NCBI GenBank assembly: GCA_001873215.1
Contig: MNYS01000003.1
Coordinates: 49,455-113,454, forward strand
Direction: 5' to 3'
Source: Candidatus Levybacteria bacterium CG2_30_37_29
GTDB taxonomy: Bacteria > Patescibacteriota > Microgenomatia > Levybacterales > GWA1-39-11
DNA: 64,000 nt
Under the pieces are notes generated by a model that saw only the letters and a list, made by a program, of their open reading frames with translations, was not told the DNA's origin and ran no database searches. The position numbers were made by a program, and so were the translations under genes. Position 1 is the first letter of the stretch. Each line of letters starts with the position of its first letter. Positions 43,582-61,294 of this stretch are shown here, piece by piece.

Positions 43582-44007
43582 ATGCCAACATTAAATCAAT
43601 TAATTAAAAGAGGAAGAAGTAAAAAAATAAAGAAAATAAAAGCAACAGCGCTTAGGACTGTTTTTAATGCAAAAGACAGGAAATATTCTTTGGTTCCGGG
43701 ACCGCAAAAACGTGGTGTGGTAACGCTTGTCAGAACCATGACGCCAAAAAAACCAAATTCGGCTCTTAGAAAAGTTGCGCGCGTAAAACTTTCAAACCGT
43801 GAAGAAGTAACAGCTTATATTCAAGGAGTCGGACACAATTTGGCAGAGCACGGAATTGTTTTGGTCCGCGGCGGACGCGTAAAAGATTTGCCCGGAGTAA
43901 AATATCATTTAGTACGCGGAAAATTTGATTTGGCAGGAGTTGACGGACGCAAAACTTCAAGAAGTAAATATGGAGTAAAAAGACAAGGAGGACAAGCAGC
44001 AGCGTAA
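43582..44007 (+). CDS. rpsL: 30S ribosomal protein S12 with a short N-terminal insertion
   Basis: [14 protein letters not shown] and [13 protein letters not shown] are S12 signatures. Confidence 0.95.
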
Positions 44008-44095: not shown

Positions 44096-44575
44096 ATGTC
44101 ACGCGGTGGAACAAAAATTAAAAAAAGAATAAATCCCGGGGATGCGGTTTACTCAAACCTGCTTTTGGGGAAATTTATCAACGGTCTTATGATGCACGGA
44201 AAAAAAACCGTTGCGCAAAGAGTGGTATACGGCGCGTTTGAAATATTAAAAAAAGAAGGACATGACCCACTTGGAGTTTTTGAGCAGGCAATTGAAACTG
44301 TTGGGCCAAAAGTAGAGGTAAAAGCCAGAAGAATCGGAGGAGCGGCGTATCAAGTTCCAACAGAGGTTAGGGGAGGACGAAAAAATTCCTTGGCGATTAG
44401 ATGGATTTTGGATGCGGCAAAAAAAAGACCGACTTCAGAATTTAAAACATTTTCGCAAAAACTCGCTGCAGAGCTTTTGGACGCTTCAAAAAATGCGGGC
44501 GAGGCAATAAAGAAAAGAGATGTAGCCCACCGTATGGCCGAAGCCAATAAGGCTTTTGCACACTTTAGATTTTAG
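44096..44575 (+). CDS. rpsG: 30S ribosomal protein S7
   Basis: S7 fold motifs RIGGAAYQVP and GEAIKKRDVAHRMAEANKAFAHFR. Confidence 0.95.
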   Translation: MSRGGTKIKKRINPGDAVYSNLLLGKFINGLMMHGKKTVAQRVVYGAFEILKKEGHDPLGVFEQAIETVGPKVEVKARRIGGAAYQVPTEVRGGRKNSLAIRWILDAAKKRPTSEFKTFSQKLAAELLDASKNAGEAIKKRDVAHRMAEANKAFAHFRF

Positions 44576-45299
44576 ATTTTAATTTTTCGTTAGATCTTTT
44601 TACGGCCCGATAAATTGTTCTCAGCTCCTGCATCGATAAAATATCATTCTCCATAATAATTTTTCTGCAATTTTCAGGGTTTTCTTTGTAAAGTTTGTCA
44701 ATGCAGAGAATTAGAACAACTAGGTCAGAAAAAACTTGGTCAACAGACTGACGATCATAAATCATTACATAAATAAACGTTATGCAAATAAGTATAAAGT
44801 TGATGTCAAAAGAATATGGAAAAATATCTACAAGGATTGATAGGAGAATGACAATTTCCAATCCGTTTCTAACTATGTTGTCGCCGTATCCTGAGGAATT
44901 GCTACTAGAAATTATATATATTGCTCCCTCCGGGTGATCTGCTTCCGGTCCTTCAAATTTTACTTGGTGGATATTTTTTAAATAAACAGAAATACTTCTT
45001 CTATTTTTGACATGCACCTTATAATACCAGGTTTTTTTTACAGCAGACCAAAGAGTTTCAGATAAAACAAAAATAAAAAATGTAATAATAATTACTGCCG
45101 TAATTCTTGCGGCTGATACGTAAAATTCAGCCTTGCTTGTAGAGGTGAAAACCGTGATTAAAAAAATACAAACAATAGCCGATGAAAATATTATTTTGTC
45201 GCGTAGGGAAGAAAAGTAATAAAAAGACAAAAACTTATATTTAACGGATATAAAGTCTTCTCTTATTCCAAAAAATAAATTTTTTAATTTCCCCAACAC
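44565..45299 (-). CDS. Hypothetical multi-pass membrane protein, first gene of the insert that separates rpsG from fusA
   Basis: Several hydrophobic helices. No recognised domain. It overlaps the rpsG stop by 11 nt on the opposite strand. Confidence 0.4.
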   Translation of the reverse strand: MLGKLKNLFFGIREDFISVKYKFLSFYYFSSLRDKIIFSSAIVCIFLITVFTSTSKAEFYVSAARITAVIIITFFIFVLSETLWSAVKKTWYYKVHVKNRRSISVYLKNIHQVKFEGPEADHPEGAIYIISSSNSSGYGDNIVRNGLEIVILLSILVDIFPYSFDINFILICITFIYVMIYDRQSVDQVFSDLVVLILCIDKLYKENPENCRKIIMENDILSMQELRTIYRAVKRSNEKLKSKI

Positions 45300-45417
45300 A
45301 CGTCAATTATACTCCCTAAAAACCAAGCCCAAAATTTTTCTTAAATCATAAATCATATATCATCCCAGCCTCAAAAAAAAGCTTGATAAAATTTTCTATC
45401 TGACGTAAAATAAGGTT

Positions 45418-45612
45418 ATGAAACAGAAAAAGATAGATTTCGTAAAATTATTAAAAGGTTTTAAGTCGGGGTGGGTAGGGATTTCCACAGACCATAAAAA
45501 AGTTCTCGTTCACGGGGAAACACTAAAAGAAGCAAAATTAAAAGCAGAGGAAAAAAAATTAGACTTATTTTTCTTCCCCGCCGGTGAGAGATATGATAAC
45601 TTCGTAGGCTAA
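45418..45612 (+). CDS. Small hypothetical protein, upstream partner of a retropepsin-like gene (module copy 2)
   Basis: Homologous to 23317-23559. There is a 2-nt gap to the downstream gene. Confidence 0.4.
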   Translation: MKQKKIDFVKLLKGFKSGWVGISTDHKKVLVHGETLKEAKLKAEEKKLDLFFFPAGERYDNFVG

Positions 45613-45614
45613 AA

Positions 45615-46022
45615 ATGATCACGGTCGAATACAGTCCCATGCCGGGTTTGAAAAATTCTCTACCTCAACCAATGTTACCTTTAAAATTTATTAATGGAAC
45701 AAAAGAAGTTTCAACTTATGCGTTGGTCGATTCCGAAGCAGCCGGAGCTGTAATTTCTACCGTAATCGCAGAAGACTTAGGGATAGACTGGCAAAAGATT
45801 CCGGGAGTCGGTGGATTTTCAGTTGGTGGAAATTTTATTTCTCACGCGGCAAAAATAAAAGTCAGAATATTTGACGAGGAATTTGGATTAAATGTAAATA
45901 TAATTGAAGGAGTGGCTCCATATAAAGCTATTTTGGGTCAAAGAGATTTGTTTCAAAGGGCAAAAATTATTTTCGAAGGATACAAAAAAGTATTTCATAT
46001 TGAATTTAGAAACTACAACTAA
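45615..46022 (+). CDS. Retropepsin-like (clan AA) protein, module copy 2, with an altered active-site motif (DSEA instead of DSG)
   Basis: ALVDSEAAGAVISTVIAEDLGIDW aligns with ALIDSGSDHNIFPAELASEIGLDY of copy 1. C-terminal AILGQRDLFQRAKIIFEGYKKVFHIEF aligns with PVLGRNGFFNYFKKVNFDVKNKNFEL. Confidence 0.5.
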   Translation: MITVEYSPMPGLKNSLPQPMLPLKFINGTKEVSTYALVDSEAAGAVISTVIAEDLGIDWQKIPGVGGFSVGGNFISHAAKIKVRIFDEEFGLNVNIIEGVAPYKAILGQRDLFQRAKIIFEGYKKVFHIEFRNYN

Positions 46023-46295
46023 AACCCATAACCTACTTTTTTTACGAAGTAAAACAAAGGTAGCAAAGCGTCCCATCTATCAACCTATTACCTATAACCT
46101 AGTGAACCTATCACCTACATCAATTTCAAAAAGGTGCTAAAATAAGCCAAAAGCAGTATAATTTTTTCAGTTTTTTTATTCCTAATTTTTATTTGGCTTC
46201 TGGGCCGCGGGGTTTTATTATTTTTTTCCAGTTTAAACATTATTAACAACAGGTATATTTCGGTCAAACATTCAAACGAACATCGGAACGTTCTA

Positions 46296-46319
46296 TCTCA
46301 TGTTCTCGAGAACATGAGA
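46296..46319. promoter_or_regulatory. Perfect 24-bp palindrome TCTCATGTTCTCGAGAACATGAGA flanked by GAACGTT motifs, a candidate operator
   Basis: Perfect dyad centred on CTCGAG, about 90 nt upstream of the MBL-fold hydrolase gene. Both flanks contain GAACGTT. Confidence 0.45.
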
Positions 46320-46405
46320 ACGTTAGGTTATTTTTTCTCGTAATTTAACTCCCTAGCCGTATAATTTTCTTTCTCCCTGACTTTTTTTGTGGTATATTTT
46401 ATCCA

Positions 46406-47068
46406 ATGGAAAATGTGACTTGGTTGGGGCATGCTTCTTTTTGTTTTACCGATTCCCAAACAGGGCAGAAGATTTATTATGTAGATCCGTTCAATTTACC
46501 AAAAAATCCGCCGGCTGGCGGAGCAGATATTATTTTTATCACTCATGCACATTATGATCATTTATCGAATACCGATATTAGTTTAATTCTCAAACCGAAA
46601 ACAACGGTTGTCGCAACACCTGACAGCTTAAAAACTCTAAATATTACTCAAGTTAAATTTCCCGTTGAGCCGAATAAATCATACGAAATTAACGGATTCA
46701 AATTTGATACGGTTCCGGCATACAATGTGGTGCCTGAGCGTTTAAGCTTTCATCCAAAATCAAACAATTGGGTAGGGTACATTTTTAATTTAAACGGTCT
46801 TACAATTTACCATGCGGGAGACACGGATTTTACTGCCGAGATGAATACGTTCGACAAGCTCAGTATTGACATTGCGATGCTTCCGATGGGCGGGACTTAT
46901 ACGATGAATGTTGAAGAGGCAATTGAGGCGGCAAATGCAATTGGCGCAAAAAAAACAATTCCCATGCATTATAAAAGTCTGTTAAAAGAAAAAGCTTGCG
47001 AGGCCGAGGAAAAATTGAAAAAAGGCGTTGTGAATTCTGAAGTCGTGATTCTTGAAGAATTGAGATAA
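46406..47068 (+). CDS. MBL-fold metallo-hydrolase
   Basis: FITHAHYDHL metal-binding motif, HAGDTDF, about 220 aa of beta-lactamase fold. Confidence 0.75.
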   Translation: MENVTWLGHASFCFTDSQTGQKIYYVDPFNLPKNPPAGGADIIFITHAHYDHLSNTDISLILKPKTTVVATPDSLKTLNITQVKFPVEPNKSYEINGFKFDTVPAYNVVPERLSFHPKSNNWVGYIFNLNGLTIYHAGDTDFTAEMNTFDKLSIDIAMLPMGGTYTMNVEEAIEAANAIGAKKTIPMHYKSLLKEKACEAEEKLKKGVVNSEVVILEELR

Positions 47069-47240
47069 TATTTTCTTTGTACTTTTGTCCGCCAAAAGAA
47101 GCAAAACCTCTCGTCGTGTCGTGCTCACGCATTACGTCTTTTCCTCGTTCACTGAAAGAGCCGGACAAGCCTTTCCTCTTTCCTGGCGTTCACTCGGGCA
47201 AGACTTCAAGAGTTGCGCGCGAAACGACGAATATGCTTCA
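47066..47240 (+). repeat. Roughly 175-nt conserved intergenic element, copy A, beginning at the stop codon of the MBL-hydrolase gene
   Basis: Aligns at about 70-80% with 55714-55886. Shared blocks: TAAT.TTT.TTTCTT, TCCGC.AAAAGAA.CAAAA.CTCTCG.CG.GTC, CACTGAAAG, CGGAC, GCCTTTC, CTTTCC.GGCGTTC, TTCAAGA, CG.CGAATAT.CTT. Confidence 0.6.
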
Positions 47241-47338
47241 ATCGCAATGGAAAAATGTACTGCGAATCGAAGAATGAAAGATATTGTGCGCAAAACGATA
47301 AACAAAGCAAAAATGGCGCGCGAAACGATAATGAAAGA

Positions 47339-47977
47339 TTATTCAACAGTAATTCCTAAAATGCGGTCGCCGATTTTTATTGTATTAACCACATTCATTC
47401 CGTCAGTCACAATTCCAAAATTTGTATATTGATTATTGAGCCATGGAGCTTCCGTTTTTGTTATAAAAAATTGTGAATCGTTTGAGATTTTTATGTCGCC
47501 TCCGCGCGCAACACCAACGGATCCAACAACAAATGGTTTTTCGCTTAATTCTGTCGGCAAATCTCCTCCACCGGTACCGTTGCCTTTAGGGTCTCCTCCT
47601 TGGATTACCCAATCTTCAACACGGTGAAACGTAAGATTGTTGTAAAATCCGCTTTGTGCTTTTTGCACAAAATTTGCCACAGTCCCCGGCGCTTCTTTTC
47701 CGTAAAACGAAAAAACAATATCTCCCTTGCTTGTTTTAATAGTGGCCTTTTTTGCCGCAACAGGGTTTATTGTTGGCACAGCAGATGTAGAGGACGGGGT
47801 AACACTAATAGACGGTGCAATTGTAATAAGGCGCTGGACCTGAACGGTTGGTGAAGGTACAACCGGAATTTGCGGAGTGAATGTTGTCTGCTTTGTTTGC
47901 AAAAGAAAGTAGAGGCCGCCAAACCCAATGACGACAAGAACTATAAATATAATCGCTGTTCTACTCATAAAACCCAT
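47339..47977 (-). CDS. Cyclophilin-type peptidyl-prolyl cis-trans isomerase with an N-terminal membrane anchor
   Basis: FHRVEDWVIQGGDPKGNGTGG, FFITK, and the TM anchor IIFIVLVVIGFGGLYFLL. Confidence 0.85.
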   Translation of the reverse strand: MGFMSRTAIIFIVLVVIGFGGLYFLLQTKQTTFTPQIPVVPSPTVQVQRLITIAPSISVTPSSTSAVPTINPVAAKKATIKTSKGDIVFSFYGKEAPGTVANFVQKAQSGFYNNLTFHRVEDWVIQGGDPKGNGTGGGDLPTELSEKPFVVGSVGVARGGDIKISNDSQFFITKTEAPWLNNQYTNFGIVTDGMNVVNTIKIGDRILGITVE

Positions 47978-48024
47978 ACATGAAGACCTATTCTAATCAA
48001 TTTAAATAAAAAATTCAAGGACTA

Positions 48025-48053
48025 TTGACAAACACTCTTTAATGTATTAATAT
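48025..48053 (+). promoter_or_regulatory. Sigma70-like promoter (TTGACA, 17 nt, TAATAT) for the copper locus
   Basis: TTGACA at 48025-48030, TAATAT at 48048-48053. Confidence 0.5.
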
Positions 48054-48073
48054 ATCCCTCATGGGGGGATATA
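48051..48073 (+). promoter_or_regulatory. CsoR-type operator (TATATCCC-N-GGGATATA), overlapping and just downstream of the -10 element
   Basis: TATATCCCTCATGGGGGGATATA has 8-bp inverted arms around a G-tract. It resembles ATACCC-N-GGGGTAT CsoR operators, and it lies 25 nt upstream of csoR. Confidence 0.55.
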
Positions 48074-48097
48074 ATTAGGCATCATTCCGCACAAAAT

Positions 48098-48373
48098 ATG
48101 GCATATAGACCAAAGGATACACAAGAAAGAATTGCTCATCGCCTTAAAATCGCGAGGGGGCATCTTGAGAAGGTTATCAGTATGGTTGAAAACGATTCTT
48201 ACTGCATTGACGTTTTACATCAACTGCAAGCCGTTGAAGGAGCGCTTAAAGAAACCGGCAATGCGGTTTTGGAAAATCATTTAAAAACATGTGCTGCCAA
48301 TGCAATAAAAGAAGGAAAAGGTAACGAGGCAATCGAGGAAATTATGAATGTTTTCAAGAAAAAAGCAAATTAA
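48098..48373 (+). CDS. csoR: CsoR/RcnR-family metal-sensing (copper) repressor
   Basis: DUF156 fold with the Cys...His...Cys ligand pattern (YCIDVLHQ ... C in KTCAAN). Four-helix bundle length. Confidence 0.8.
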   Translation: MAYRPKDTQERIAHRLKIARGHLEKVISMVENDSYCIDVLHQLQAVEGALKETGNAVLENHLKTCAANAIKEGKGNEAIEEIMNVFKKKAN

Positions 48374-48747
48374 TGGATAAAGTTTTTGTTTTTATCGGTG
48401 GAATTTTAGGTATTATTTTTACTGCTTGGTTTTTCTTCGGAAAAAAAGATGAAGCGGTCCAAGCACGTTCTGAAAGCCCGGAAAAAGCAGAGGTCGATAT
48501 TTTAGTAAAAGGAGGATATCAACCTTCTACGGTTCAAATTAAAAAAAACAAAATTACAACTTTTAATTTTACAAGGCAAGATGAAAATAGCTGTCTTGAA
48601 GATGTTATATTGTCCGAATTTAAAATAAAACGCTTTCTTCCTCTCGGAAAAACCGTTTCTTTTGAAATTAAACCTGAAAAGACCGGTACGTTTGACTTCT
48701 CATGCGGCATGGGCATGTTTCATGGAAAACTTATCGTTAAGGATTAA
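48373..48747 (+). CDS. Membrane-anchored cupredoxin-like domain protein
   Basis: N-terminal TM helix. [24 protein letters not shown]...[15 protein letters not shown] resembles the cupredoxin_1-type domain found near copper ATPases. The start overlaps the csoR stop (TAATG). Confidence 0.5.
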
Positions 48748-48748
48748 T

Positions 48749-50992
48749 ATGAAAACACTTAAAAAAACTTATTCACTAAAAGGTATGCATTGTGCATCTT
48801 GCGTACGAGTGATTGAAAGGGCGTTAAAAAAAGTTGACGGGGTTCTTGACGCAAACGTAAATTATGCTTCGGAAAAAGCAATCGTCACAATAGAAGAAAG
48901 AGTAAAAGATGATGATATTTTAAATTCCGTTTCTAGCGTAGGATACCAAGCTTTACTGGCTAATAATACTTCTGATGAAGAAGAAAATAAGGAAAAACAA
49001 AAAGATTTGGTAAGCTTAAGAAATAAAGTTGCTGTAAGTCTTTTTTTCGGAGCAATAATTACGTGGGGAAGTTTTCCCGGATTATCAAATTACGCTCCCG
49101 ATCTTTTTAAAAACTTTTTCTTTCAGCTTTTGCTTGCTACTCCTGTTCAATTCTGGGCAGGGCTCGCTTTTTACAAAGCCACAATTCCTGCACTTAAAAA
49201 TAGAACGGCAAACATGGATACACTTGTCGCAATAGGCACAAGCGTTGCATACTTTTATTCAGTTTTTGTAACGTTTTTTCCTGCAATACTTCAAAAATTT
49301 CAAATAGAAGCAATGCCTTATTTTGATGTTGCATCTGTTGTTATCGGATTAATTTTGTTAGGAAGGTTTTTGGAAGCCAAAGCCAAAGGACAAACCTCTC
49401 AGGCAATAAAAAAATTAATAGGACTTCAGGCAAAAACAGCGCGTGTTGTTAGAGACGGAAAGGAAATTGATGTTCCCATACAAGACGTAGTCGTAGGAGA
49501 TTTAATTCGCGTTAGACCCGGTGAAAAAATTCCGGTTGATGGAATTGTGACTGAGGGAGATTCGTCAATTGACGAATCTATGGTTACCGGAGAAAGCATT
49601 CCGGTTGAGAAAACAATTAAAGATATTGTAATCGGAGCAACATTAAATAAGTCAGGAACATTTCTTTATAAAGCAACAAAAGTAGGAAGTGAGACGATGC
49701 TATCTCAAATTATAAAACTCGTTCAAGAAGCGCAAGGAAGCAAGGCACCAATTCAAAGACTTGCAGATGTAATTTCTTCATATTTTGTTCCTGTCGTTAT
49801 AATTCTTTCTATTTTAACCTTTGTCGTATGGTATGTTTTTGGTCCTACGCCCGCTCTTGTTTTTGCAATTCTAAATTCTATTGCGGTTCTTATAATTGCA
49901 TGCCCGTGCGCAATGGGACTTGCAACACCCACGGCAATAATGGTCGGCACTGGAATAGGCGCTGAAAATGGGATTTTAATAAAAGATGCCCAGAGTCTTG
50001 AAATTGCCCATAAAGTAAATACAATTATTTTTGATAAAACAGGAACTTTGACTCACGGAACACCTAAGGTAACGGATATAGTTAAAGTTCAAAGTTCAAA
50101 ATTCAAAATTCAAAGTGATAGTGAGATATTAAGGTTGGCTGCCTCACTTGAAAAAGGGTCGGAACACTCTTTGGCAGAAGCAATTGTAAAAGACGCAGAA
50201 AATAAAAAAATTACATTAGATAAAATTGATAAATTCAAAGCCGTACCCGGACACGGGGTTGAAGGATTTCTAAAAATGGATAAAGTAATTCTTGGGAATA
50301 GAAAAATGATGGAGAGAGAAAAAGTTAACTTTAAGGATTCTGAAGAACAAATTGAAAAACTTGAGACAGAAGGAAAAACGGTTATGATGATAGCTGTTAA
50401 AAATGAGCTCATCGGGCTAATTGCAGTAGCAGATACGATAAAAGATAGCGCAAAAGAGGCAATACAAATACTTAACAAAATGCGTATTCAGACTATTATG
50501 ATTACTGGAGATAACATGAGAACTGCTGATGCAATAGCTAGAAGTTTGGGAATTTCTAAAATTTTAGCGGATGTTCTTCCTCAAGACAAAGAAAATGAGG
50601 TTAGAAAAATACAAAGTCAGGGAAAAGTTGTGGCAATGGTAGGAGACGGAATAAACGATGCTCCTGCGCTTGCCGCAGCTGATGTAGGAATAGCAATGGG
50701 AAGCGGTACTGACGTTGCAATTGAGGCAGCCGATATAACTCTTATAAATCATGATTTAAAGTCTGTAGTAAAAGCAATTATACTTTCCAAAAAAACAATG
50801 AGAACGATAAAATTAAATCTTTTCTGGGCATTCGGATACAATATAATTCTTATTCCTGTTGCGATGGGAGCTTTATATCCTTTTTCCGGCATACTCTTAA
50901 ATCCAATTTTTGCATCATTTGCTATGGCAACAAGTTCTGTGTCTGTTGTTACAAACTCTTTATTATTAAAACGTGCGAAAATTAATGTATAA
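48749..50992 (+). CDS. copA: Copper-translocating P1B-type ATPase CopA with an N-terminal HMA domain
   Basis: [25 protein letters not shown] ([11 protein letters not shown]), [17 protein letters not shown]. The ATG at 48749 overlaps the upstream stop codon. Confidence 0.9.
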
Positions 50993-51004
50993 TATTGCCA
51001 AGCT

Positions 51005-52033
51005 ATGAATTTAACAGCAGTATTTTTAACAGGACTTTTAACAGGAGGGCTTACGTGCATGGCGGTTCAGGGCGGACTTCTTGCTGCAACAATTGCAAAC
51101 AGAGAAGAAGAAAGGCTTAAAGAAGAAACGAAAAAAGGAAACGCCTTGCCAATTCTTGCTTTTTTAGGAACAAAACTTATAGCATATACGGTTTTGGGAT
51201 TTTTATTGGGTCTTTTGGGAAGCGTTTTCCAGCTTTCCATACCTTTACGGACTACCTTTCAAATCGCGGTTGCTGTTTTTATGATCGGAACTGCTCTAAA
51301 TCTTCTTAATGTTCATCCAATTTTTAGGTACTTTATCATCCAGCCGCCAAAAATTTTGACACGTCTTGTAAGAAATAGATCAAAGAGCAAGGATTTTTTT
51401 GCGCCGGCGCTTTTAGGAGCGTTTACCGTATTTATTCCGTGCGGAACAACGCAAGCAATGATGGTCCTTGCAGTTGGCTCGGGAAATCCGTTTTTAGGAG
51501 CAGCAATTCTTTTCGCGTTTGTCCTTGGAACATCTCCTATATTTTTCATACTGGGATACTTTGCGACAAAACTGGGAGATATTATGCAGAAAAATTTCGC
51601 AAAAGTCGCGGCAATTTCTATTATCCTTTTGGCTATTTACAACCTTGACGGTGCAATCGCGCTTACAGGAAGTAATTGGACACTTAAAAATATGTTTTCA
51701 AAAACAGTGTGTTTTTTTACTCTATGTGATGATGGCTCGAAAACCAACAATATTGCATTACAGGTCACTCAAGGTCCGGTTATTGATATAGAATCATATG
51801 GATACAATCCAAATATTATAAATGTCAAAGCAAATTCTAACGTAACTTTAAAAATTACAAACACAAACGGAAGTGGATGCATACAAGCATTTACTATTCC
51901 TCAATTAGGAGTACAAAAAGTTATTCCGCTGGGAACTTCTGACACAATTTCTTTTACAGCACCAGATGCTCCTCAAGATATTGCATTTATGTGCAGTATG
52001 GGAATGTTTCGGGGAATAATACATGTTATTTAA
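51005..52033 (+). CDS. Polytopic membrane protein (DsbD_2/TauE-like permease) fused to a C-terminal cupredoxin-like domain
   Basis: At least six hydrophobic helices with conserved Cys (GGLTCMAVQGG, FIPCGTTQAM). The C-terminal VKANSNVTLKITNTNGSGC...FMCSMGMFRGIIHV is paralogous to the 48373 cupredoxin-like protein. Confidence 0.45.
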   Translation: MNLTAVFLTGLLTGGLTCMAVQGGLLAATIANREEERLKEETKKGNALPILAFLGTKLIAYTVLGFLLGLLGSVFQLSIPLRTTFQIAVAVFMIGTALNLLNVHPIFRYFIIQPPKILTRLVRNRSKSKDFFAPALLGAFTVFIPCGTTQAMMVLAVGSGNPFLGAAILFAFVLGTSPIFFILGYFATKLGDIMQKNFAKVAAISIILLAIYNLDGAIALTGSNWTLKNMFSKTVCFFTLCDDGSKTNNIALQVTQGPVIDIESYGYNPNIINVKANSNVTLKITNTNGSGCIQAFTIPQLGVQKVIPLGTSDTISFTAPDAPQDIAFMCSMGMFRGIIHVI

Positions 52034-52249
52034 ATGAAAAAAATAAAACTTAAAATAAAAGGTATGCATTGTGCAAGTTGCGCTATGAATATAGATGGTG
52101 ATTTAGAAGATTTGGTAGACGGGGTAAAATCATCCAACACAAGTTATGCAAAGGGAGAAGTTGAGATTGAGTTTGATGAGAAAAATGTGAAAATTGAACA
52201 AATAATAAAGCAAATTACAAAAACAGGATATCAAGCAGAAATAGAATAA
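52034..52249 (+). CDS. copZ: Copper chaperone CopZ (HMA domain)
   Basis: GMHCASCAMNI metal-binding motif, 71 aa ferredoxin-like fold. Confidence 0.8.
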   Translation: MKKIKLKIKGMHCASCAMNIDGDLEDLVDGVKSSNTSYAKGEVEIEFDEKNVKIEQIIKQITKTGYQAEIE

Positions 52250-52256
52250 TTTTAGA

Positions 52257-53324
52257 CTATAGTTCTATAAGGTTTTTTGGAGATTGCGTGAGCAGATTTA
52301 TTTTTTCTCCATCAAAATATACAGTATCTTCTATTCTTACTCCGCCAAAACCATTTATATAAATTCCGGGCTCTATGGTAAAGGGCGTGTTTGGATTAAT
52401 CTTTTCTTTAATTCCTGGGGAAATATGTGGAAGTTCATGGACAGCAAGTCCAACCCCATGTCCAACAGAATGTGGGATATTTGGGTATCCTTGGGAAATA
52501 ATATAATCTCTTGGGATTTTATCCAGATCTTGAGGCGTAAACATTTTTGGTTTAAACCCTTTTTCCTGCCCAATCCTCACTGTTTCGTACATTCTTTTAA
52601 ATTTTTCTGGAGCTTTTCCGAAAAAAACAGTGCGCGTCATGTCTGCGCAATATCCACCAGCCTTTGCGCCAAAATCCAAAAGAACAATTGAGCTTGATTT
52701 AAGTTTGGTTTCATCTGTTTTATGGTGAGGGATTGCAGAATTTTTACCAAAAGCGATAATTGACGGAAAACCAAGTTCTCCTCCGTGTTCGCGAATAAAC
52801 TTTTCAATTTCCCATGCCAATTCAAGCTCTGTTATTCCATTTCGGATCTTTTTTAAAACATAATCGAGAGCAGAGTCCGTAAGGTTGCAAGCTTTATGTA
52901 GTGATTTAAGTTCGGTTTGATCTTTAATTGTTCGAATTTCCTCGATAATACTCTCTGCAAGTTTAAGCTTAACCCCTATTAATTTTTTAAAGCGAATGTA
53001 TTCTGAATAAGTTAGATTTTCTTCAAAACCAATATTTGTTATCTTCTCATGTTTTAAAAACTCTTCAAGCGTTTTTTGGAGTTGGGTTATCAAAAAAACT
53101 TTGATCGGATCTTTTACCGATTTTTTAACCTCATCAAAATAAAGAGTGTTTGTAAATAAAATTGCATATTTTTTTGTCACAAAAATATATGCGTCACGTT
53201 CTTCAGACATAAATCCGGAGTATCCCGTGATGTAGCGGATATTTATGCTTGAGCTAACTAATAGCGCATCAATCTTTCTTTCTGTGAGTATTGTTTGGAT
53301 TTTTTGTATTCTGTTAGGGTTCAT
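52257..53324 (-). CDS. M24-family Xaa-Pro aminopeptidase
   Basis: Creatinase-like N-domain plus the pita-bread domain with metal ligands (DFGAKAGGYCADMTRT, HSVGHGVGLAVHE, ENTV). Confidence 0.8.
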   Translation of the reverse strand: MNPNRIQKIQTILTERKIDALLVSSSINIRYITGYSGFMSEERDAYIFVTKKYAILFTNTLYFDEVKKSVKDPIKVFLITQLQKTLEEFLKHEKITNIGFEENLTYSEYIRFKKLIGVKLKLAESIIEEIRTIKDQTELKSLHKACNLTDSALDYVLKKIRNGITELELAWEIEKFIREHGGELGFPSIIAFGKNSAIPHHKTDETKLKSSSIVLLDFGAKAGGYCADMTRTVFFGKAPEKFKRMYETVRIGQEKGFKPKMFTPQDLDKIPRDYIISQGYPNIPHSVGHGVGLAVHELPHISPGIKEKINPNTPFTIEPGIYINGFGGVRIEDTVYFDGEKINLLTQSPKNLIEL

Positions 53325-53568
53325 TTTCGAAATTATAGCACGGTCTTAGTGTATTTACATAAGGTGATGAGTCTGGTAAAATAACATGAGTTCGAATTTC
53401 GTCAAACCGCTGGCGGTGTCGTAATTCGAATTTTTTTGATTTAGCGTATATTATACCGTTAACTCTTGGCGCGTTCGCAAACTTGCTCACTTGCCAGAGA
53501 CTCACGGTATTTTCTCGCTCAAGGACTTTTATTTATAGAGCGCGTAGCTTGCATAAGGAGCTCAAAAA

Positions 53569-55716
53569 ATGGCTGATACAGATAGAAACGTACCGTTAGA
53601 AAAAATTCGCAATATCGGGATTATTGCGCATATTGACGCGGGAAAAACCACAACTTCCGAGCGCATTCTTTTTTACACAGGAAAGTCCTACAAGATTGGT
53701 GATATTGATGAAGGAAATACTGTTATGGACTGGATGGATCAGGAGCGCGAACGAGGAATTACTATTGTCAGTGCCGCAACAACCACTTTTTGGACACATA
53801 CTCCTATCGGTAAGTCCAGTGACCAAGATGCACCTTACAGGATAAATCTTATCGATACTCCAGGACACGTTGACTTTACAGCAGAGGTTGAAAGATCTCT
53901 CCGCGTTTTGGACGGCGCGGTTACCGTTCTTGATGCTGAAGAAGGCGTCCAGTCGCAAAGTGAAACTGTTTGGCGTCAGGCAGACAAATACAAAGTCCCG
54001 CGAATTTGTTTTATCAACAAAATGGATAAGCTCGGAGCTGATTTTCTAAAGACTGTTGCTTCTATTGAGAAACGTCTTGGTGCAAACCCGATTATTATGG
54101 TTCTTCCGATTGGCGCGGAGCAGGATTTTAAGGGAATTGTTGATCTTTTAAACATGAAAACCATTACTTGGACAGGCGAGGAACTCGGCGCAAAGTATGA
54201 CGTGTCCGATGAAATTCCTGAAAATATGAAAAAGCTAGTTGAAGAGTACCGCCACAAAATGATTGAGAAAATTGCGGAAAACGATGATGAGCTTTTGGAT
54301 AAATATTTAAATGGAACAGAATTGACTGTTGAGGAATTAAAGGCCGGTCTTAGAAAAGCGGTAGTTGGTTATAAAGTAGTTCCAATTTATGCGGGGTCTT
54401 CTCTGCGCAATAAAGGCGTTCAGCCGCTTCTTGATGCAGTCGTTGATTATCTTCCGTCACCAATGGATTTGAAAGAAGTGAAGGGTTTGTCTCCAAAAAC
54501 GGGCGCGGAAGAAATAAGACAATTGGTTCCCGAAGAATCTTTTGCGGGCTTTGCTTTTAAAGTTCAAATTGACCCTCACGTTGGGAAAATTACATTTGTT
54601 CGCCTCTACTCCGGCAAAATTGATTCCGGTTCATACATTTATAATTCTTCAAAAGGAATAAAAGAGCGTGTCGGGCGCCTTCTTCTTATGCATTCAAATC
54701 AACGTGAGGAAATAAAAGTTGCTTATTCCGGAGAAATTGTTGCTGTTGTCGGTTTGAAAGACACGGTTACCGGAGATACATTGTGTGATGAGGCAAAACC
54801 TATTATTCTTGAAAAAATTTCATTTCCTGAGCCTGTTATTTCTCTTGCAATTGAGCCGAAAACAAAAAATGATCAGGAGAAAATGGGACTTGCGCTAAAA
54901 AGGCTTATGGAAGAAGATCCTACTTTTAGCGTTAAGACAAATCATGAAACAGGGCAGACAATTATGTCGGGGATCGGCGAGCTGCAATTGGAGATTATGG
55001 TTGACCGCATGAAGCGGGAATTTGGCGTTGACGCAAATGTAGGCGCGCCTCAAGTGGCCTACAAAGAAACAATTGCTATTGAAGCAACAGGTGAGGGTAA
55101 ATATATTAAGCAAACAGGAGGACGTGGGCAATATGGACACTGTCTTCTTAGAATTGCGCCCGTACCGCGTGGTGAAGGCTACGAATTTGTAAATGCAATA
55201 AAAGGAGGCGCGATTCCTGCCGAATTTATAGGTTCTATTGAAAAAGGAGTTAAGGAGACTTTGGAAAAAGGAATTTTATTGGGGTATCCGATGGTTGATA
55301 TGAAAGTAACTGTTTACGACGGTTCATATCATGATGTTGATTCTTCAGATATTGCTTTTAAAATTGCTGCGAGTATGGCGCTTCAAACAGCTTCCAAAAA
55401 AGCAAATCTACAACTTCTTGAACCGATTATGAAAATTGAGGTGACAACTCCTGAAGAATTTATGGGAGATGTAATAGGTGATCTTAGTTCAAAGCGTGCG
55501 CAAATCACAGGAACAGAAGAACGCGGAAATGCGCGCATAATTTTGGGTCTTGTTCCGCTGTCAGAACTTTCAGGATACGCGACGACTCTTAGGTCTATGT
55601 CGCAGGGACGCGCTACTTATTATATGGAACCTTCGCATTACGAAGAAGTTCCGCGAAACATTGTTGAAGCAATGCTTGCCAAATCCACATTCACCGGAAG
55701 AATTACCGCGCAGTAA
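53569..55716 (+). CDS. fusA: Elongation factor G
   Basis: [28 protein letters not shown], and domains II-V. Confidence 0.95.
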
Positions 55717-55886
55717 TTTATTTCTTGTTCTTTTTTCCGCAAAAAGAACCAAAAGCTCTCGCCGAGTCTTGTTCAAGCTTTCAAAATTTATTTCACTCAC
55801 TGAAAGCATCGGACTTCGCCTTTCAGCTTTCCGGGCGTTCGTTCAACAAATTTTTCAAGATTTCACTTCAAATCGGCGAATATACT
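55714..55886 (+). repeat. Roughly 175-nt conserved intergenic element, copy B, beginning at the fusA stop codon
   Basis: Homologous to 47066-47240 in the same orientation. Confidence 0.6.
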
Positions 55887-55910: not shown

Positions 55911-57086
55911 ATGGCTAGGGTTGCTCTGTCCGAATATGCTGCCAAGATGGCGCTCCACACTTTTTTAGGCCTTACTTATCACGGCCTATCTTTTAATGCC
56001 GATACCGATGTTGTCGAAAAAATTAATGAGTTTGTTCGTCCCGACAGAAAATATGTTGTAAAAGTTGATGAAGGGGTAAAACGCAGGATGAAACAAGGCT
56101 TAGTCACCCTTGATACCGATCTTAATGGAGTTATTCTTGCAATAGAAAATTACAGAAAGCGCGGCTATTCATATTTTTTAGTCGAAGAATATGTTCCTCA
56201 TGATTCATCTCTTGAGAAGTATTTATCCCTTGAGAGAACAACTCTTGGAACCGTTGTTTCGTATTCGCATAAAGGAGGAATAGATATTGAAAAACATAAA
56301 GAAGAAGTAGAAACGCTTCTTTTAAAAGATTTACAAGCCGCACGAAGCGTTGCAGAAGGATTGGGAATGGATGAAGAAGTTTTTTTGAAATTAAAAGAGG
56401 CATTTGACGATCTTTATTTTTCATTTCTTGAAATAAATCCGCTTGTTGTTAAGTTTGACAGCTTTCAGATTTTGGATATTGCAGGAGAAGTAGATAGCGC
56501 GGCAGAATTTTTTGTCCAAGACTGGTCTTCTTCTGACTTTCGTAATGCTCGTGCTTCAAAGCTAACTGATGAGGAAAAAAATATTTTGCGGCTTTCGGCA
56601 AAAAGTCCGGCAGCATTTAAATTAAATGTTCTAAATCCTGACGGAAGCATTTTTATGCTTCTTTCAGGCGGCGGCGCAAGTATTGTTTTGGCTGATGAAG
56701 TAAAAAATATTGGCCATGGAGGAGAGCTTGCAAATTACGGGGAGTATTCCGGAAACCCGAATGAGGAAGAAACCTACATTTATACAAAAAATTTACTAAG
56801 TTTGCTTCTTAAATCTGAATCAGACAAAAAAGTATTGATTATTGCCGGAGGAGTTGCAAATTTTACTGATGTCAGAATAACTTTTAAAGGAATTATTAAT
56901 GCAATTTCAGAGGTGAGCGAGAAATTAAAAGATCAAGGTATTGAAATTTATGTACGGCGCGGGGGTCCTCACCAAAAAGAGGGATTGAAGCTTATAAGCG
57001 ATTTTGTTTCCGAAAACGGGCTTATCGGAAAAGTTCACGGACCGGAAATGATATTAACAGACATAATTCATGAAGCTATAAAATAA
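55911..57086 (+). CDS. aclB: ATP-citrate lyase small subunit (AclB, ATP-grasp, SucC-like)
   Basis: DLYFSFLEINPLVV, KLNVLNPDGSIFMLLSGGGASIVLADEV..GGELANYGEYSGNPNEEETYIYTKNLLSL, VLIIAGGVANFTDVRITFKGII and IYVRRGGPHQKEGL match the ACLY N-terminal half block by block. 391 aa, close to the size of a bacterial AclB. Confidence 0.8.
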   Translation: MARVALSEYAAKMALHTFLGLTYHGLSFNADTDVVEKINEFVRPDRKYVVKVDEGVKRRMKQGLVTLDTDLNGVILAIENYRKRGYSYFLVEEYVPHDSSLEKYLSLERTTLGTVVSYSHKGGIDIEKHKEEVETLLLKDLQAARSVAEGLGMDEEVFLKLKEAFDDLYFSFLEINPLVVKFDSFQILDIAGEVDSAAEFFVQDWSSSDFRNARASKLTDEEKNILRLSAKSPAAFKLNVLNPDGSIFMLLSGGGASIVLADEVKNIGHGGELANYGEYSGNPNEEETYIYTKNLLSLLLKSESDKKVLIIAGGVANFTDVRITFKGIINAISEVSEKLKDQGIEIYVRRGGPHQKEGLKLISDFVSENGLIGKVHGPEMILTDIIHEAIK

Positions 57087-57189
57087 TTTTAAATTACAAA
57101 TTTTAAATTAAAAATGAAATCTAAATGTTTTAAAATTTATAAATTGATAATTGATTGAAAATTAAAAATTCCCGCCTGCAACGTTTAAT

Positions 57190-59022: not shown

Positions 59023-59024
59023 TT

Positions 59025-59360
59025 ATGATAAGTCTAAAAAAGAATAAAGAAATGTTTTGGTTTTTTGAAGTTCTTTTTCTTACACCATTGGCAATTTTCT
59101 GGATGGGAGTTTTGATATTGATGTTGGGAAAATCCGAAAGCATTTTGCGCGCGGTTGTAGGTCAGCCTCTTGATCCGATAAGAAGTACTGTTATTGTCAT
59201 TGTTTGTCCGTTTTTTGCGTCTTGGCTTGCGTGGCAGTACACAAAAGAGAATAAAAAAGACAAAAGCACTACCATAAAATACGCAAAGTATATTATGGCG
59301 GTTGGAGTTGTTTCAATAATTCTTGTTCTTCTCTATCTTTACGGTCCAAATTCCAGCTAG
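59025..59360 (+). CDS. Small hypothetical membrane protein
   Basis: Three hydrophobic helices. No recognised domain. Confidence 0.3.
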   Translation: MISLKKNKEMFWFFEVLFLTPLAIFWMGVLILMLGKSESILRAVVGQPLDPIRSTVIVIVCPFFASWLAWQYTKENKKDKSTTIKYAKYIMAVGVVSIILVLLYLYGPNSS

Positions 59361-59403
59361 CCTTGATTATAATTCGTTAATCTACTACAATAGCTTCAAA
59401 GCT

Positions 59404-60369
59404 ATGATACTTCACGAAAATTTTTCTCTCAAGGATATTCTTTGGTATAAAATCGGCGGAATTGCTAGATATCTTATTGACGTTGAGAACTCGGAAGATG
59501 TTGAAAAAGCAGCTGAATTCATAAAGAGAAACAAACTTACCAGGGCTTTTTTTATCGGTCAGGGAAGCAATCTAATTTTTACCGATGATTTTTTTGACGG
59601 CGCGGTCGTGCGATTTATTGCGCCAAAAAAGAGTTCTATTCGGCTTGTTGGGAATAGCACTGTTGAGGCATTTGCAGGTGAGCTTCTTGATAATGTTATT
59701 AAATTTTCGTTTGAGAATAGTTTGATTGGTCTTGAATGGGCAGGAGGACTTCCCGGTACTGTGGGGGCGGCAATTCGCGGAAACGTAGGAGCTTTTGGAG
59801 GAGAGATAAAAGACAACGTTAAAGAAGTAACCTTGCTTGAAATAACCGATAAAAAAATGAAACTTATAACGTTAAAAAGGTTCGAGTTAAAATTTGGTTA
59901 TAGAAACTCTCTTGTTAAAAAACACAGAAATCTAATAGTTGTTTCTTCTCTATTCCGTCTTACTCCAACCGATGCGGCCGGTGTCCAGAGAGCCCGTCAA
60001 ACTTATCTTTCAAACATTGAATATAGAAATAGACGCCATCCTCTTGAATTTCCAAATTGCGGAAGTGTATTTAAAAATATTACAGATCCAGAAAAGATAA
60101 AAAGTGTTTTGGAAATTTTTCCCGACCTTGAGGAAAAAATAAAAAGGGATTGGCATGGGAAAGTTGCGATGGGATACCTTATCAAGCGTTTGGATCTTGC
60201 GGAATTTCGCGTTGGAAACGCTCAAATTTCACCAAAACATTGCAATTTTATAGTGAATTTGGGAGGAGCAAAAGCAGAAGATGTTTTATCTATAATAAAA
60301 ACTATTCAAGAAAAATTCCAAGAAACCTTTGAGTTTACCCCCGAAGTTGAGGTGGAGATAGTATGTTAA
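59404..60369 (+). CDS. murB: UDP-N-acetylenolpyruvoylglucosamine reductase MurB
   Basis: FAD-binding N-domain (YKIGGIARYLI...IGQGSNLIF) and GGLPGTVGAAIRGNVGAFGGEI. The likely start is ATG 59404 (MILHENF). The ORF-track start at 59323 overlaps the upstream gene. Confidence 0.8.
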   Translation: MILHENFSLKDILWYKIGGIARYLIDVENSEDVEKAAEFIKRNKLTRAFFIGQGSNLIFTDDFFDGAVVRFIAPKKSSIRLVGNSTVEAFAGELLDNVIKFSFENSLIGLEWAGGLPGTVGAAIRGNVGAFGGEIKDNVKEVTLLEITDKKMKLITLKRFELKFGYRNSLVKKHRNLIVVSSLFRLTPTDAAGVQRARQTYLSNIEYRNRRHPLEFPNCGSVFKNITDPEKIKSVLEIFPDLEEKIKRDWHGKVAMGYLIKRLDLAEFRVGNAQISPKHCNFIVNLGGAKAEDVLSIIKTIQEKFQETFEFTPEVEVEIVC

Positions 60370-60917: not shown

Positions 60918-61025
60918 TACCGGCCTATTTTGGTACATTGTAGATTTTTATGCGTTTCACTTTCAAATCTTCGAAGTTTATTTTTTTTATTGCGTTTGGG
61001 GTGTTAATCTCATATAATTCCACTC

Positions 61026-61241: not shown

Positions 61242-61246
61242 GACAT

Positions 61247-61294
61247 GAAGCTAACGAAGCTAACGATCCCGTATCGTTAGAATATCGTTAGAAT
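61247..61294. terminator. Imperfect inverted repeat built from CTAACGA units, a candidate bidirectional terminator between convergent genes
   Basis: GAAGCTAACGAAGCTAACGAT-CCCGT-ATCGTTAGAATATCGTTAGAAT. Confidence 0.35.

Follow-up and report, generated by a model that had tools for sequence, protein, structure and literature searches.

The window analyzed here, a 64,000-nucleotide stretch of the genome of Candidatus Levybacteria, an uncultured groundwater bacterium, contains the upstream half of a str operon, with rpsL (S12, 43582–44007; Pfam Ribosom_S12_S23, E=2e-32) and rpsG (S7, 44096–44575; Pfam Ribosomal_S7, E=5e-52) on the plus strand and rpoB-rpoC immediately 5' of them. The gene for EF-G, fusA (53569–55716, plus strand), matched seven EF-G and GTPase Pfam families and has all five EF-G domains. 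Based on the Pfam gene calls, the rpsG stop at 44575 and the fusA start at 53569 are separated by 8,993 nt on the same strand, whereas the two genes are contiguous elsewhere as the norm. The split of the operon described in the initial annotation was therefore real, and all the genes it had listed in the gap were present. An identical gene order across the interval was found in 13 contig loci of the same species, from many independent samples in ENA, JGI, and NCBI assemblies; those compared as DNA (L001–L010 and L111) were 99.8–100% identical, and L112 and L113 were compared by gene tables. As the order was uniform in all same-species contigs, no ongoing turnover is shown at the rpsG side.

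The first gene in the interval (44565–45299, minus strand) is convergent with rpsG, overlaps its stop codon by 11 nt, and encodes a 244-aa membrane protein with four to five hydrophobic segments. This protein had no match in Pfam, NCBIfam, or PHROG, and a search of 5.8 billion proteins found only the protein itself, making it an ORFan; in addition, its gene was not at the corresponding position in either of two sister species, L011 (the nearest) and L024. It is followed on the plus strand by a 64-aa DUF5678-like protein (45418–45612) and a 135-aa retropepsin-like protein (45615–46022), first described as copy 2 of a small-protein and retropepsin module. The pair is present but is only a remote paralogue of that at 23377–23984: the two proteases have 26% identity over 70 aa (E=6e-5), the 135-aa protein has DSE in place of the DSG of its paralogue, the paralogue itself gave weak Asp_protease_2 and TIGR03698 matches, and the small proteins of both pairs matched DUF5678 below threshold (E=0.058 and 0.0018). 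A 383-nt non-coding stretch (46023–46405) separates the 135-aa gene from the next gene and, as had been reported for a stretch of about 380 bp, contains a perfect 24-nt palindrome, TCTCATGTTCTCGAGAACATGAGA, at 46296–46319, which is followed by a T-run and is terminator-like. The segment that begins with the membrane gene and includes this palindrome is lineage-specific; its right limit is at approximately 46339/46340, where homology to contig L105 begins (at 46340), and the promoter region of the next gene lies beyond it. A variant contig, L004, diverges at 46153.

That next gene encodes an MBL-fold metal-dependent hydrolase (46406–47068, plus strand; Pfam Lactamase_B_3, E=8e-30) with 65% identity to its positional counterpart in L011. 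It is absent from L024 and represents a middle layer common to the nearest species only. Two further genes are on the minus strand, a membrane-anchored cyclophilin-type peptidyl-prolyl isomerase (cyp, 47339–47977; Pfam Pro_isomerase, E=5e-34) and an M24 Xaa-Pro peptidase (52257–53324; Pfam Peptidase_M24, E=1.5e-57, and Creatinase_N), for which an NCBIfam PepQ-like match fell below the cut-off. M24, the upstream gene of what was once a pair, is divergent from fusA and is now separated by a copper cassette from cyp, the downstream gene. Counterparts of M24 occupy the corresponding position in L011 (46% identity) and L024 (35%), each with a cyp counterpart (43% and 49%, respectively) directly after it on the same strand at a spacing of 38–100 nt. 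These identities of 35–49% compare with 76–81% for core proteins, and orthology was assigned by position. Since the M24-cyp pair is also found in both sister species, it is ancestral to that sub-clade and is the oldest layer of the interval. Contig L105 has 95% identity across the MBL gene, the repeat element that follows it, and cyp, and unrelated DNA to the left of 46340 and to the right of 48021; it could not be connected to rpsG and may represent a second MBL-cyp copy elsewhere or in another organism.

The copper cassette (48022–52249, plus strand; 4.2 kb) lies between cyp and M24 and has five genes with their own predicted promoter and operator. Pfam matches identified csoR (48098–48373), a cupredoxin (48373–48747), copA (48749–50992), a DsbD_2-cupredoxin fusion (51005–52033), and copZ (52034–52249), so that the complete CsoR-regulated copper locus noted earlier was borne out at 48098–52249. 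The predicted promoter, TTGACA-N17-TAATAT (48025–48053), and the putative CsoR-type operator, ATATCCCTCATGGGGGGATAT (48052–48072), are conserved across cassettes, all of which have in common TTGACA and an operator of the form ATATCCCC-N3/4-GGGGGATAT. CsoR residues C35, H60, and C64 align with C36, H61, and C65 of M. tuberculosis CsoR (PDB 2hh7), the protein matched PDB entries 2hh7 and 4m1p, and CopA retains the HMA CxxC and CPC motifs. Patescibacteria conserve these five genes in this order as a unit, and the cassette was found in three other contexts (L094, L098, and L099; CopA identity 82–84%), in which the neighbours are a Crp regulator, an Asp/Glu racemase, or an unknown gene. A version with 71% identity was located inside a prophage, where phage head and portal genes flank it. 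Over 100 clusters of CopA had 67–72% identity, which exceeds the EF-G identity to Parcubacteria (60%), and some of them bear the names of Parcubacteria-type or Daviesbacteria proteins. Within the 10 kb examined of each relative, the cassette was not found between cyp and M24 in L011 or L024. The cassette is a movable unit. It probably travels horizontally among Patescibacteria as one unit, for which phage would be one possible vehicle.

A structured repeat is found a few nt past the MBL stop codon (copy A, 47072–47234, plus strand; covariance model R1, 176 bits) and again a few nt past that of fusA (copy B, 55720–55883, plus strand; 197 bits). The 175-nt element initially placed after the MBL gene is thus present, although alignments gave it a core of approximately 163 nt. 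Copies A and B have 73–74% identity, and a copy C, after rpsJ, has 93% identity to copy B. The element comprises a short 5' hairpin and a long imperfect hairpin; its covariation is strong, with compensatory changes in 20 of 45 pairs, and it matched no Rfam family. All three copies are confined to 19 kb of the str-S10 region, where each comes shortly after a stop codon, and the remaining 44 kb of the window has none. Four of five variants of the repeat follow a co-oriented gene, just past its stop codon, and three of these four genes are translation genes. No relative with an expanded rpsG-fusA gap was found to have the repeat, and in L011 the site of copy A is an MBL-cyp interval of approximately 10 nt, or a slight overlap depending on the ORF called.

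Upstream of fusA, a consensus match predicted a promoter, TTTACA-N17-TGGTAAAAT (53354–53382), followed by a leader with a putative hairpin (approximately 53388–53433) and a T7 run (region to 53438), and by a ribosome-binding site, AAGGAG (53555–53560). The same TTTAC(A/T) -35 and (T/A)GGTAAAAT -10 boxes precede fusA in L011 and L024, and a -10-like box with a subsequent hairpin and U-run does so in L012, L013, L014, L015, and L016; in all, eight genomes have the hairpin and U-run leader before fusA. These sequence features suggest a dedicated promoter for fusA, which the two sisters also conserve.

On its other side, fusA is separated from tuf by a second expanded junction of 8,683 nt, of which 55911–64000 (plus strand, Pfam annotation) lies in the window. 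This interval contains, in order, aclB, aclA, a 111-aa ORF, murB, a 184-aa ORF, a 71-aa ORF, an HhH-GPD glycosylase gene (minus strand), two NUDIX genes, a 197-aa ORF, and a glyoxalase-like gene (minus strand). The initial annotation had fusA followed by aclBA rather than tuf, and proposed looking for tuf elsewhere; this description holds locally, but tuf is not lost. Same-species contigs (L091–L093) showed that it starts 8,683 nt past the fusA stop, approximately 400 nt beyond the window end, and they run on into rpsJ, rplC, and beyond on the same strand. The backbone, rpoBC-rpsLG-[9 kb]-fusA-[8.7 kb]-tuf-S10, is therefore collinear and co-oriented, with its order and strand fully preserved.

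To place the interval in context, 80 genomes were compared, of which 74 had informative fusA loci with rpsG upstream. The rpsG-fusA gap was ≤583 nt in 66 of these 74 loci, and gaps of more than 1 kb were confined to five Levybacteria-like genomes and two Parcubacteria, making the Levybacteria-like clade the main exception to adjacency; its gap genes differ in each species. On a quick neighbour-joining tree of four proteins (RpoC, S12, S7, and EF-G; no support values), the gap contents were nested: outgroups have 40–510 nt and no genes, L016 has 0.58 kb with one ORF, L012 has 2.1 kb with three ORFs, L024 has 2.8 kb with Metallophos, cyp, and M24, L011 has 3.9 kb with DCD-like, MBL, cyp, M24, and one ORF, and the window has 9.0 kb with the left segment, MBL, copy A, cyp, the copper cassette, and M24. 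Approximately 6 kb of the latter (the cassette, left segment, and copy A) is lineage-specific. The gap of L019 holds an unrelated 7.1-kb gene set while that of its sister L017 is 180 nt, indicating an independent expansion. In the closest genomes, the genes that separate rpsG from fusA are different and for the most part unrelated, and the two remain adjacent in more distant Microgenomates and in other bacteria, from which it follows that the junction behaves as a variable spot at the level of the clade. A gene order common to all relatives, which the initial annotation had named as grounds for rejecting an insertion, was thus not what the comparison showed. The hotspot claim stands in that sense, without the hallmarks of a site-specific island: no integrase, recombinase, tRNA, or flanking or att-like direct repeat was found at any boundary in the window. 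Nor did the suggested composition check show a shift across the interval, as the composition and codon usage of the insert genes all fall inside the backbone range. What had been called a single insert of roughly 9 kb is instead a nesting of three or more layers that differ in age.

Based on these observations, we consider it probable that the 9 kb between rpsG and fusA arose from the addition of unrelated genes in several separate steps, as a stack of gains at a str junction that would no longer be constrained in the Levybacteria lineage. In the proposed history, fusA of a Levybacteria-like ancestor would first have gained its own promoter and leader, and with them independence of read-through from rpsL-rpsG. 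The opposite-strand M24-cyp pair would then have settled beside fusA in the common ancestor with the two sister species, and the MBL hydrolase would have been added in the ancestor common to the window organism and its nearest species. In this lineage only, the left segment may have replaced the former rpsG-adjacent DNA, the 163-nt repeat may have inserted after the MBL gene, and the copper cassette, probably the latest addition, would have landed exactly between M24 and cyp, splitting the pair. The fusA-tuf junction may have been opened in the same way.

Recurrent, independent insertion at this junction in several lineages could also be explained by an actively targeted integration site, at which a local feature (the structured repeat, the hairpin-rich fusA leader, or strong transcription) recruits incoming DNA, such that the pile-up is not passive. 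The clustering of the repeat copies in the str-S10 region would fit this explanation, as would the divergence of L105 exactly at the left edge of the cassette (48021/48022), where the contig enters an rve_3-like transposase ORF at its 3' end, although this match is a 37-aa fragment (E=0.003) on an unplaced contig. However, we believe targeting to be unlikely given the absence of the repeat from relatives with an expanded gap, the lack of integration hallmarks at the boundaries in the window, and the varying boundaries and orientation of the inserted sets. An arrangement wholly ancestral to the Levybacteria-like clade, with shorter gaps produced by deletion and nothing inserted recently, is improbable and already disfavoured. 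Patescibacteria are known for genome reduction, cyp-M24-fusA-aclBA-murB is common to three species, and the insert genes resemble the backbone in composition and codon usage. Yet this explanation requires independent and precise losses of the cassette in L011 and L024, leaving 38–100 nt, and is at odds with the intact cassette in unrelated contexts and its presence in a prophage, with the ORFan membrane gene, and with the contents of L012, L016, L019, and L020, which are unrelated to those of the window rather than subsets of them. The literal wording of a recent 9-kb island gained in one event could draw on genes unrelated to translation, some on the opposite strand, but is very improbable: parts of the interval are common to relatives at different depths, neither island hallmarks nor a composition shift were seen, and the subsets at the same place in L011 (MBL-cyp-M24) and L024 (cyp-M24) refute it. 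An assembly or binning chimera mis-joining the operon halves to foreign DNA is refuted even though several contigs terminate near 46.7–48.1 kb, because these ends coincide with a multi-copy repeat, the usual cause of assembly breaks, and the 13 same-species loci, from differing samples, assemblers, and repositories and with one on a 164-kb contig, span the junctions.

Under the favoured reading of stepwise gains, the rpsG-fusA interval clearly exemplifies a variable spot in the genome, albeit a fairly ordinary one, and its components can be compared with known systems. The cassette resembles the CsoR-regulated copZA operons of Firmicutes and Actinobacteria in its CsoR with C-H-C copper ligands, its predicted G/C-tract palindromic operator overlapping the promoter, its P1B-type CopA with an HMA domain and CPC motif, and its CopZ chaperone, but differs in having two extra genes, the secreted-type cupredoxin and the DsbD_2-cupredoxin fusion. 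Small structured intergenic repeats and MITE-like palindromic elements include REP/BIME, ERIC, Correia, and RUP/BOX. Like these, the ~163-nt element is multi-copy and intergenic, folds into an imperfect long hairpin, and causes assemblies to break; unlike REP- or MITE-type repeats, it had no visible terminal target duplication and no Rfam match, and its compensatory changes would be unexpected from random MITE decay.

As in published insertions into transcription and translation gene blocks, a conserved co-oriented block has been opened with its backbone order kept. Those insertions lie between operons, whereas these are inside the str operon (rpsG-fusA and fusA-tuf), in Patescibacteria, and nested and recurrent within one small clade; a fitness cost was measured for the published work in Salmonella. 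Hotspots of horizontal gene transfer (HGT), reportedly described by Oliveira et al. in 2017 as intervals in which a constant pair of core genes flanks accessory genes that vary among related genomes, are delimited inside the pan-genome of a species, and many classical ones carry the integrases or tRNAs that the rpsG-fusA interval lacks. In the present case one species varies from the next while the species itself looks fixed, but the interval has the same core flanks with different cargo in nearly every related genome, and this cargo includes resistance and defence-type genes.

The rpsL (43582–44007), rpsG (44096–44575) and fusA (53569–55716) genes, assigned from the ORF listing and Pfam as encoding S12, S7 and EF-G, respectively, are all on the plus strand and are immediately preceded by rpoB and rpoC. 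The str genes are not contiguous, as rpsG and fusA are separated by 8,993 nt containing 11 genes. The first of these is a minus-strand ORF of 244 residues whose 3' end overlaps the rpsG stop codon by 11 nt. It is followed by a pair of genes for proteins of 64 and 135 residues and by a non-coding stretch of 383 nt, within which lies a perfect palindrome of 24 nt (46296–46319). The remainder of the interval comprises, in order, a gene for an MBL-fold hydrolase (MBL), a repeat element, a cyclophilin gene (cyp, minus strand), five copper genes (csoR, cupredoxin, copA, a DsbD_2–cupredoxin fusion and copZ) and a gene for an M24 peptidase (M24, minus strand). Together with aclB and aclA, which follow fusA, these are the flanking genes and gap contents that had been described in the initial annotation as a split str operon, and all of them were found.

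To place this arrangement among related bacteria, the GTDB species representatives were scanned with EF-G, giving 80 loci that were then compared with the window proteins by tblastn. In 74 loci rpsG was upstream of fusA on the same strand, and the gap was no longer than 583 nt in 66 of these 74. Gaps of more than 1 kb were seen only in five Levybacteria-like genomes (L011, L012, L019, L020 and L024, with L011 and L024 representing two sister species) and two Parcubacteria (L050 and L061); in another genome, L013, fusA was unlinked from rpsG. A neighbour-joining tree of RpoC, S12, S7 and EF-G had the topology ((window, L011), L024), then (L016, L012), then the rest, and both the size and the contents of the gap track this tree. 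The outgroups have 40–510 nt and no genes in the gap, L016 has 0.58 kb with one ORF, and L012 has 2.1 kb with three ORFs, one of them OmdA-like. The gap of L024 is 2.8 kb (Metallophos, cyp and M24), that of L011 is 3.9 kb (DCD-like, MBL, cyp, M24 and one ORF), and that of the window is 9.0 kb, with the 11 genes including the copper cassette. Outside this series, the 7.1-kb gap of L019 is filled by an unrelated set (glycosylase, LigT, GSDH, DsbD-thioredoxin and others), while the gap of its sister L017 is 180 nt, and L020 has yet another set. In total, seven different gene sets occupy the junction in L011, L012, L016, L019, L020, L024 and the window, as expected of a hotspot.

These comparisons bear on how the gap was filled. 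The initial annotation had proposed a single accessory insert of roughly 9 kb in a hotspot, and it is the second part of this proposal that stands. Relatives do differ in what they carry between rpsG and fusA, and since those contents follow the tree across the relatives, a single 9-kb insert is contradicted. The same differences argue against a gene order common to all relatives, the circumstance in which the arrangement would have been ancestral rather than inserted; no such common order was found. An assembly artefact was ruled out because the order is repeated in 13 same-species contig loci from ENA, JGI and NCBI assemblies, one of which spans the arrangement in a 164-kb contig, with those compared at the DNA level being 99.8–100% identical.

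Several layers of the gap can be told apart by comparison with the two sister species. In both L011 and L024, cyp and M24 lie on the minus strand, 38–100 nt apart, directly upstream of fusA, and in the window the plus-strand copper genes sit exactly between them. MBL is common to the window and L011 only, and the leftmost segment (44576 to ~46339), comprising the membrane protein gene and the following gene pair, has a counterpart in neither sister species. Among 5.8 billion proteins, this 244-residue membrane protein had no match other than itself. The 135-residue protein is a remote paralogue of the product of a retropepsin-like gene elsewhere in the window (23565–23984; 26% identity over 70 residues, E = 6e-5), and the small partner proteins of these two retropepsin-like genes had only sub-threshold matches to DUF5678. 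Searches of NCBIfam and PHROGs with the three uncharacterised gap proteins gave no match.

Hallmarks of a genomic island were sought in the interval. No integrase, recombinase or transposase domain was identified among the 11 gap genes with Pfam, NCBIfam and PHROGs, there were no IS elements or transposase genes at the ends of the copper cassette in the window, and searches for flanking direct or inverted repeats at each layer boundary returned chance-level matches only. There was also no shift in composition of the kind that the initial annotation had suggested looking for. The gap genes, with GC of 0.30–0.42 and GC3 of 0.21–0.37, were all inside the backbone range for both measures, and their per-codon likelihoods were within the range of rpoB, rpoC, fusA and other genes, with the exception of the short cupredoxin and copZ genes, which scored slightly above it.

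Within the species, gene order was identical in all contigs, and two unplaced sequences hint at variants of the interval. Contig L105 (1–4376, 4.4 kb, JGI 3300025150), from the same aquifer sample as the same-species contig L007, is 95% identical to window 46340–48021 (MBL, the repeat element and cyp) and has unrelated DNA on both sides. Its left flank has three other genes, one of which, encoding 389 residues, is a member of a widespread family that occurs in defence-like neighbourhoods, beside GmrSD, AbiV-HEPN and LexA-like genes. Its right flank starts exactly at the left edge of the cassette with the 3' end of an ORF for an rve_3-like transposase, the match being a 37-residue fragment (E = 0.003). 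No contig linking the 389-residue gene to rpsG was found, and following the sequences that cluster with cyp, MBL and M24 yielded same-species contigs only, none of which placed L105. The second sequence, in the same-species contig L004 (12058–12158), departs from the window at 46153, inside the non-coding stretch, with 89 nt of unrelated sequence that ends in a perfect TTGACA-N17-TATAAT and is followed by a scaffold gap (N10); the departure reflects an additional insertion in a variant strain or else an artefact of scaffolding. An apparently missing cyclophilin gene in same-species contig L005 was merely a run of N. Several contigs end at the repeat element, as is expected of a multi-copy repeat.

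The initial annotation had also asked whether tuf, which does not follow fusA directly, is located elsewhere. The aclBA genes do lie directly after fusA, and tuf has not been lost. In same-species contigs its start, on the strand of fusA, lies 8,683 nt beyond that gene and extrapolates to ~400 nt past the end of the window; the S10 operon follows, beginning with rpsJ and rplC, also on this strand. The fusA–tuf gap contains 12 genes (aclBA and murB, genes for a glycosylase and a glyoxalase-like protein, two NUDIX genes and small ORFs). Thus rpsL, rpsG, fusA and tuf are all kept in order on one strand, and the rpoBC-rpsLG-fusA-tuf-S10 backbone is intact in order and orientation and has been opened at two internal junctions. 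ATP-citrate-lyase-like aclB and aclA are directly 3' of fusA in at least five Levybacteria-like genomes (window 55911–59022; L011 12943–15965; L024 12768–15724; L014 4432–5598; L015 6023–6973). Such genes are unusual in Patescibacteria, a group without a TCA cycle. Homologues for citrate cleavage in CPR have been reported by one preprint.

The region upstream of fusA offers an explanation for the tolerance of insertions. In the window, fusA has a predicted promoter (TTTACA-N17-TGGTAAAAT, 53354–53382) followed by a hairpin at ~53388–53433 with a T7 run, and an AAGGAG ribosome-binding site at 53555. The same -35 and -10 boxes are upstream of fusA in L011 and L024, and a -10-like box, then a hairpin and U-run, precede fusA in five more relatives (L012–L016). 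This conserved layout of -10 box, stable U-run hairpin and start codon (window 53354–53438; ~130 nt in relatives) might serve EF-G as an attenuator-type leader. As regards co-transcription from a promoter upstream of rpsL, the window has a gene convergent with rpsG that overlaps its stop codon, and three opposite-strand genes intervene before fusA. The consensus matches upstream of fusA suggest that it has been transcribed on its own throughout the clade. With its own transcription, fusA would have lost the selective reason to be held against rpsG, and we favor this as the explanation for why insertions are tolerated at the rpsG–fusA junction but not at rpoC–rpsL or rpsL–rpsG, both of which remain tight in close relatives. 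Just upstream of the fusA promoter in L015 (~3040–3085) and L014 (~2040–2090), in GC-rich flanking DNA, there is a tRNA-like acceptor/T-arm minihelix ending in CCA (GGGGAAGG-TCGGGTTCAAACCCCGG-CCTTCCCC-GCCA). A tRNA or tmRNA reading of this minihelix was rejected, as neither ARAGORN nor Rfam calls one.

The copper cassette (48022–52249) has the features of a functional unit. CsoR retains the Cys-His-Cys set of Cu(I) ligands, its C35, H60 and C64 corresponding to C36, H61 and C65 in the M. tuberculosis protein (PDB 2hh7, E = 2.5e-19). CopA, a P1B-type ATPase, has the Pfam HMA, E1-E2_ATPase and Hydrolase domains, with C15/C18 of the N-terminal HMA CxxC motif and C385-P386-C387 of the transmembrane CPC motif invariant in the alignment, and copZ, for the chaperone, encodes an HMA domain (E = 8e-14). 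Just upstream of csoR is a predicted promoter, TTGACA-N17-TAATAT, whose -10 region is overlapped by an operator-like palindrome, ATATCCC-TCAT-GGGGGGATAT, that is conserved in five cassettes. Every cassette compared has both this operator-like site and the TTGACA box. We count the CsoR ligand set, the CopA motifs and the promoter with its palindrome as evidence of a functional cassette, which is a candidate CsoR-regulated copper efflux locus with predicted copper-dependent derepression at the operator.

The three nearest CopA homologues (82–84% identity) are in the same five-gene cassette, each with different neighbours (a Crp regulator, an Asp/Glu racemase or a gene of no assigned function), and DNA similarity between cassettes is restricted to the coding regions. 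The same five genes being beside different neighbours is evidence of the cassette moving as a unit. Beyond these, CopA identities level off in a plateau at 67–72% that spans more than 100 clusters, the named ones including Paceibacterota, Yanofskybacteria, Pacebacteria and Daviesbacteria. As EF-G of the window and of Parcubacteria share only 60% identity, the plateau points to horizontal spread of the cassette within Patescibacteria. In a mosaic cassette, L098, copA and the DsbD-cupredoxin gene (1430–4744) are 88% identical to the window in DNA and csoR and cupredoxin (790–1428) do not align to it at all, which suggests recombination inside that cassette.

A CopA of 71% identity was found within a 13-kb Cu/Hg island between phage major head (E = 3e-34) and portal/adaptor (E = 7e-16) genes in three contigs (L095 4396–17994, L096 4360–17958, and L097). 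The island comprises genes for ArsR, AhpC, MerC, a MerA-like reductase, CsoR, cupredoxin, DUF3105, CopA, MerR, a BlaI/BlaR-like pair, DsbA, DsbD-cupredoxin and HMA. The phage evidence for the cassette is limited to these three contigs, as the CopA matches among GenBank phages (tblastn) were all generic and below 50%, and IMG/VR gave no match in two scans, of which one used the single protein and the other an alignment.

The repeat element after MBL is ~163 nt in length and consists of a short 5' hairpin and a long imperfect hairpin. Copy A (47072–47234) served as reference. Copy B, after fusA (55720–55883), is 73–74% identical to A; copy C, after rpsJ in the same genome, is 93% identical to B; copy D, on other aquifer contigs between two opposite-strand genes, is 84% identical to A; and copy E, after rplL in another organism, scored 87 bits on the covariance model R1. 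Loci outside the window were at L091 13083–13246, L103 4274–4435 (minus) and L101 524–691 (minus). The copies after MBL, fusA, rpsJ and rplL lie just past stop codons. When the five distinct sequences were fitted to a structure derived from three of them, 94% of cells paired, versus 33–57% with partners slid, changes on both sides occurred in 20 of 45 pairs, and none of 500 shuffles reached the observed values. Both strands fold better than shuffles (z-scores of -3.3 for plus and -2.4 for minus), so folding does not settle the strand. A whole-window repeat search with a seed of 12 missed the element, which was found by blastn with short words. No Rfam family matched the window at gathering threshold, nor was any tRNA or tmRNA detected in its 64 kb; permissive Rfam scans of copies A and B gave chance-level matches only (E ≥ 0.18), and neither blastn nor the covariance model found the repeat in relatives L011–L050.

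The structured repeat is the one element here that could be new, and as such the most promising lead. We speculate, as a long shot, that it is a new Levybacteria-specific structured RNA class or structured mobile element that settles directly behind the stop codons of genes for translation (fusA, rpsJ and, in another organism, rplL), possibly as a processing, termination or insulation signal, and is part of what freed the str-S10 junctions for cassettes. If this speculation is correct, the repeat would allow fusA, tuf and the S10 genes to form expression units of their own.

Other repeats were observed elsewhere in the window. The 3'-terminal 62 nt of the gene for RNase J (22221–22282) are repeated with 94% identity 912 nt downstream (23133–23194), bracketing a small AbrB/SpoVT-like gene and a PIN-domain gene in what looks like a toxin-antitoxin cassette inserted at the RNase J 3' end with target duplication. 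In addition, two 28-nt copies of the hairpin-forming CAATCCCGTTGTCCAGTAAACGGGACAA, 96% identical, at 9599–9626 and 10078–10105, flank a 144-residue ORF (9636–10070).

Few bacterial genes are as stably linked as those of the str and S10 operons, which provide single-copy syntenic markers when uncultured lineages are binned or placed in phylogenies. In one Patescibacteria clade the str block has been opened at two internal junctions, where genes keep being gained. If the predicted fusA promoter is functional, str linkage would be held by expression coupling and not by something intrinsic, and cargo seems to be tolerated at the site from the point at which fusA is driven by a promoter of its own. 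The compact five-gene copper cassette, with its own predicted sensor-operator, circulates among Patescibacteria, including inside prophage, and bears on how these small-genome, host-dependent bacteria gain stress resistance. The split junction and the cassette are well-documented examples; they bring no new principle and do not overturn current views. Within the rpoBC-str-S10 supercluster of Proteobacteria, operons are separated by multigene insertions (Brandis et al. 2019, PMC6735719), and the event described here is of the same kind, with the difference that it is inside the str operon and in Patescibacteria. The junction also fits the working definition of a hotspot for gene transfer flanked by conserved core genes, with the variation here being between species. 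Similarly, the copper genes fit a CsoR-regulated efflux locus, to which two extra cupredoxin-type genes are added here.
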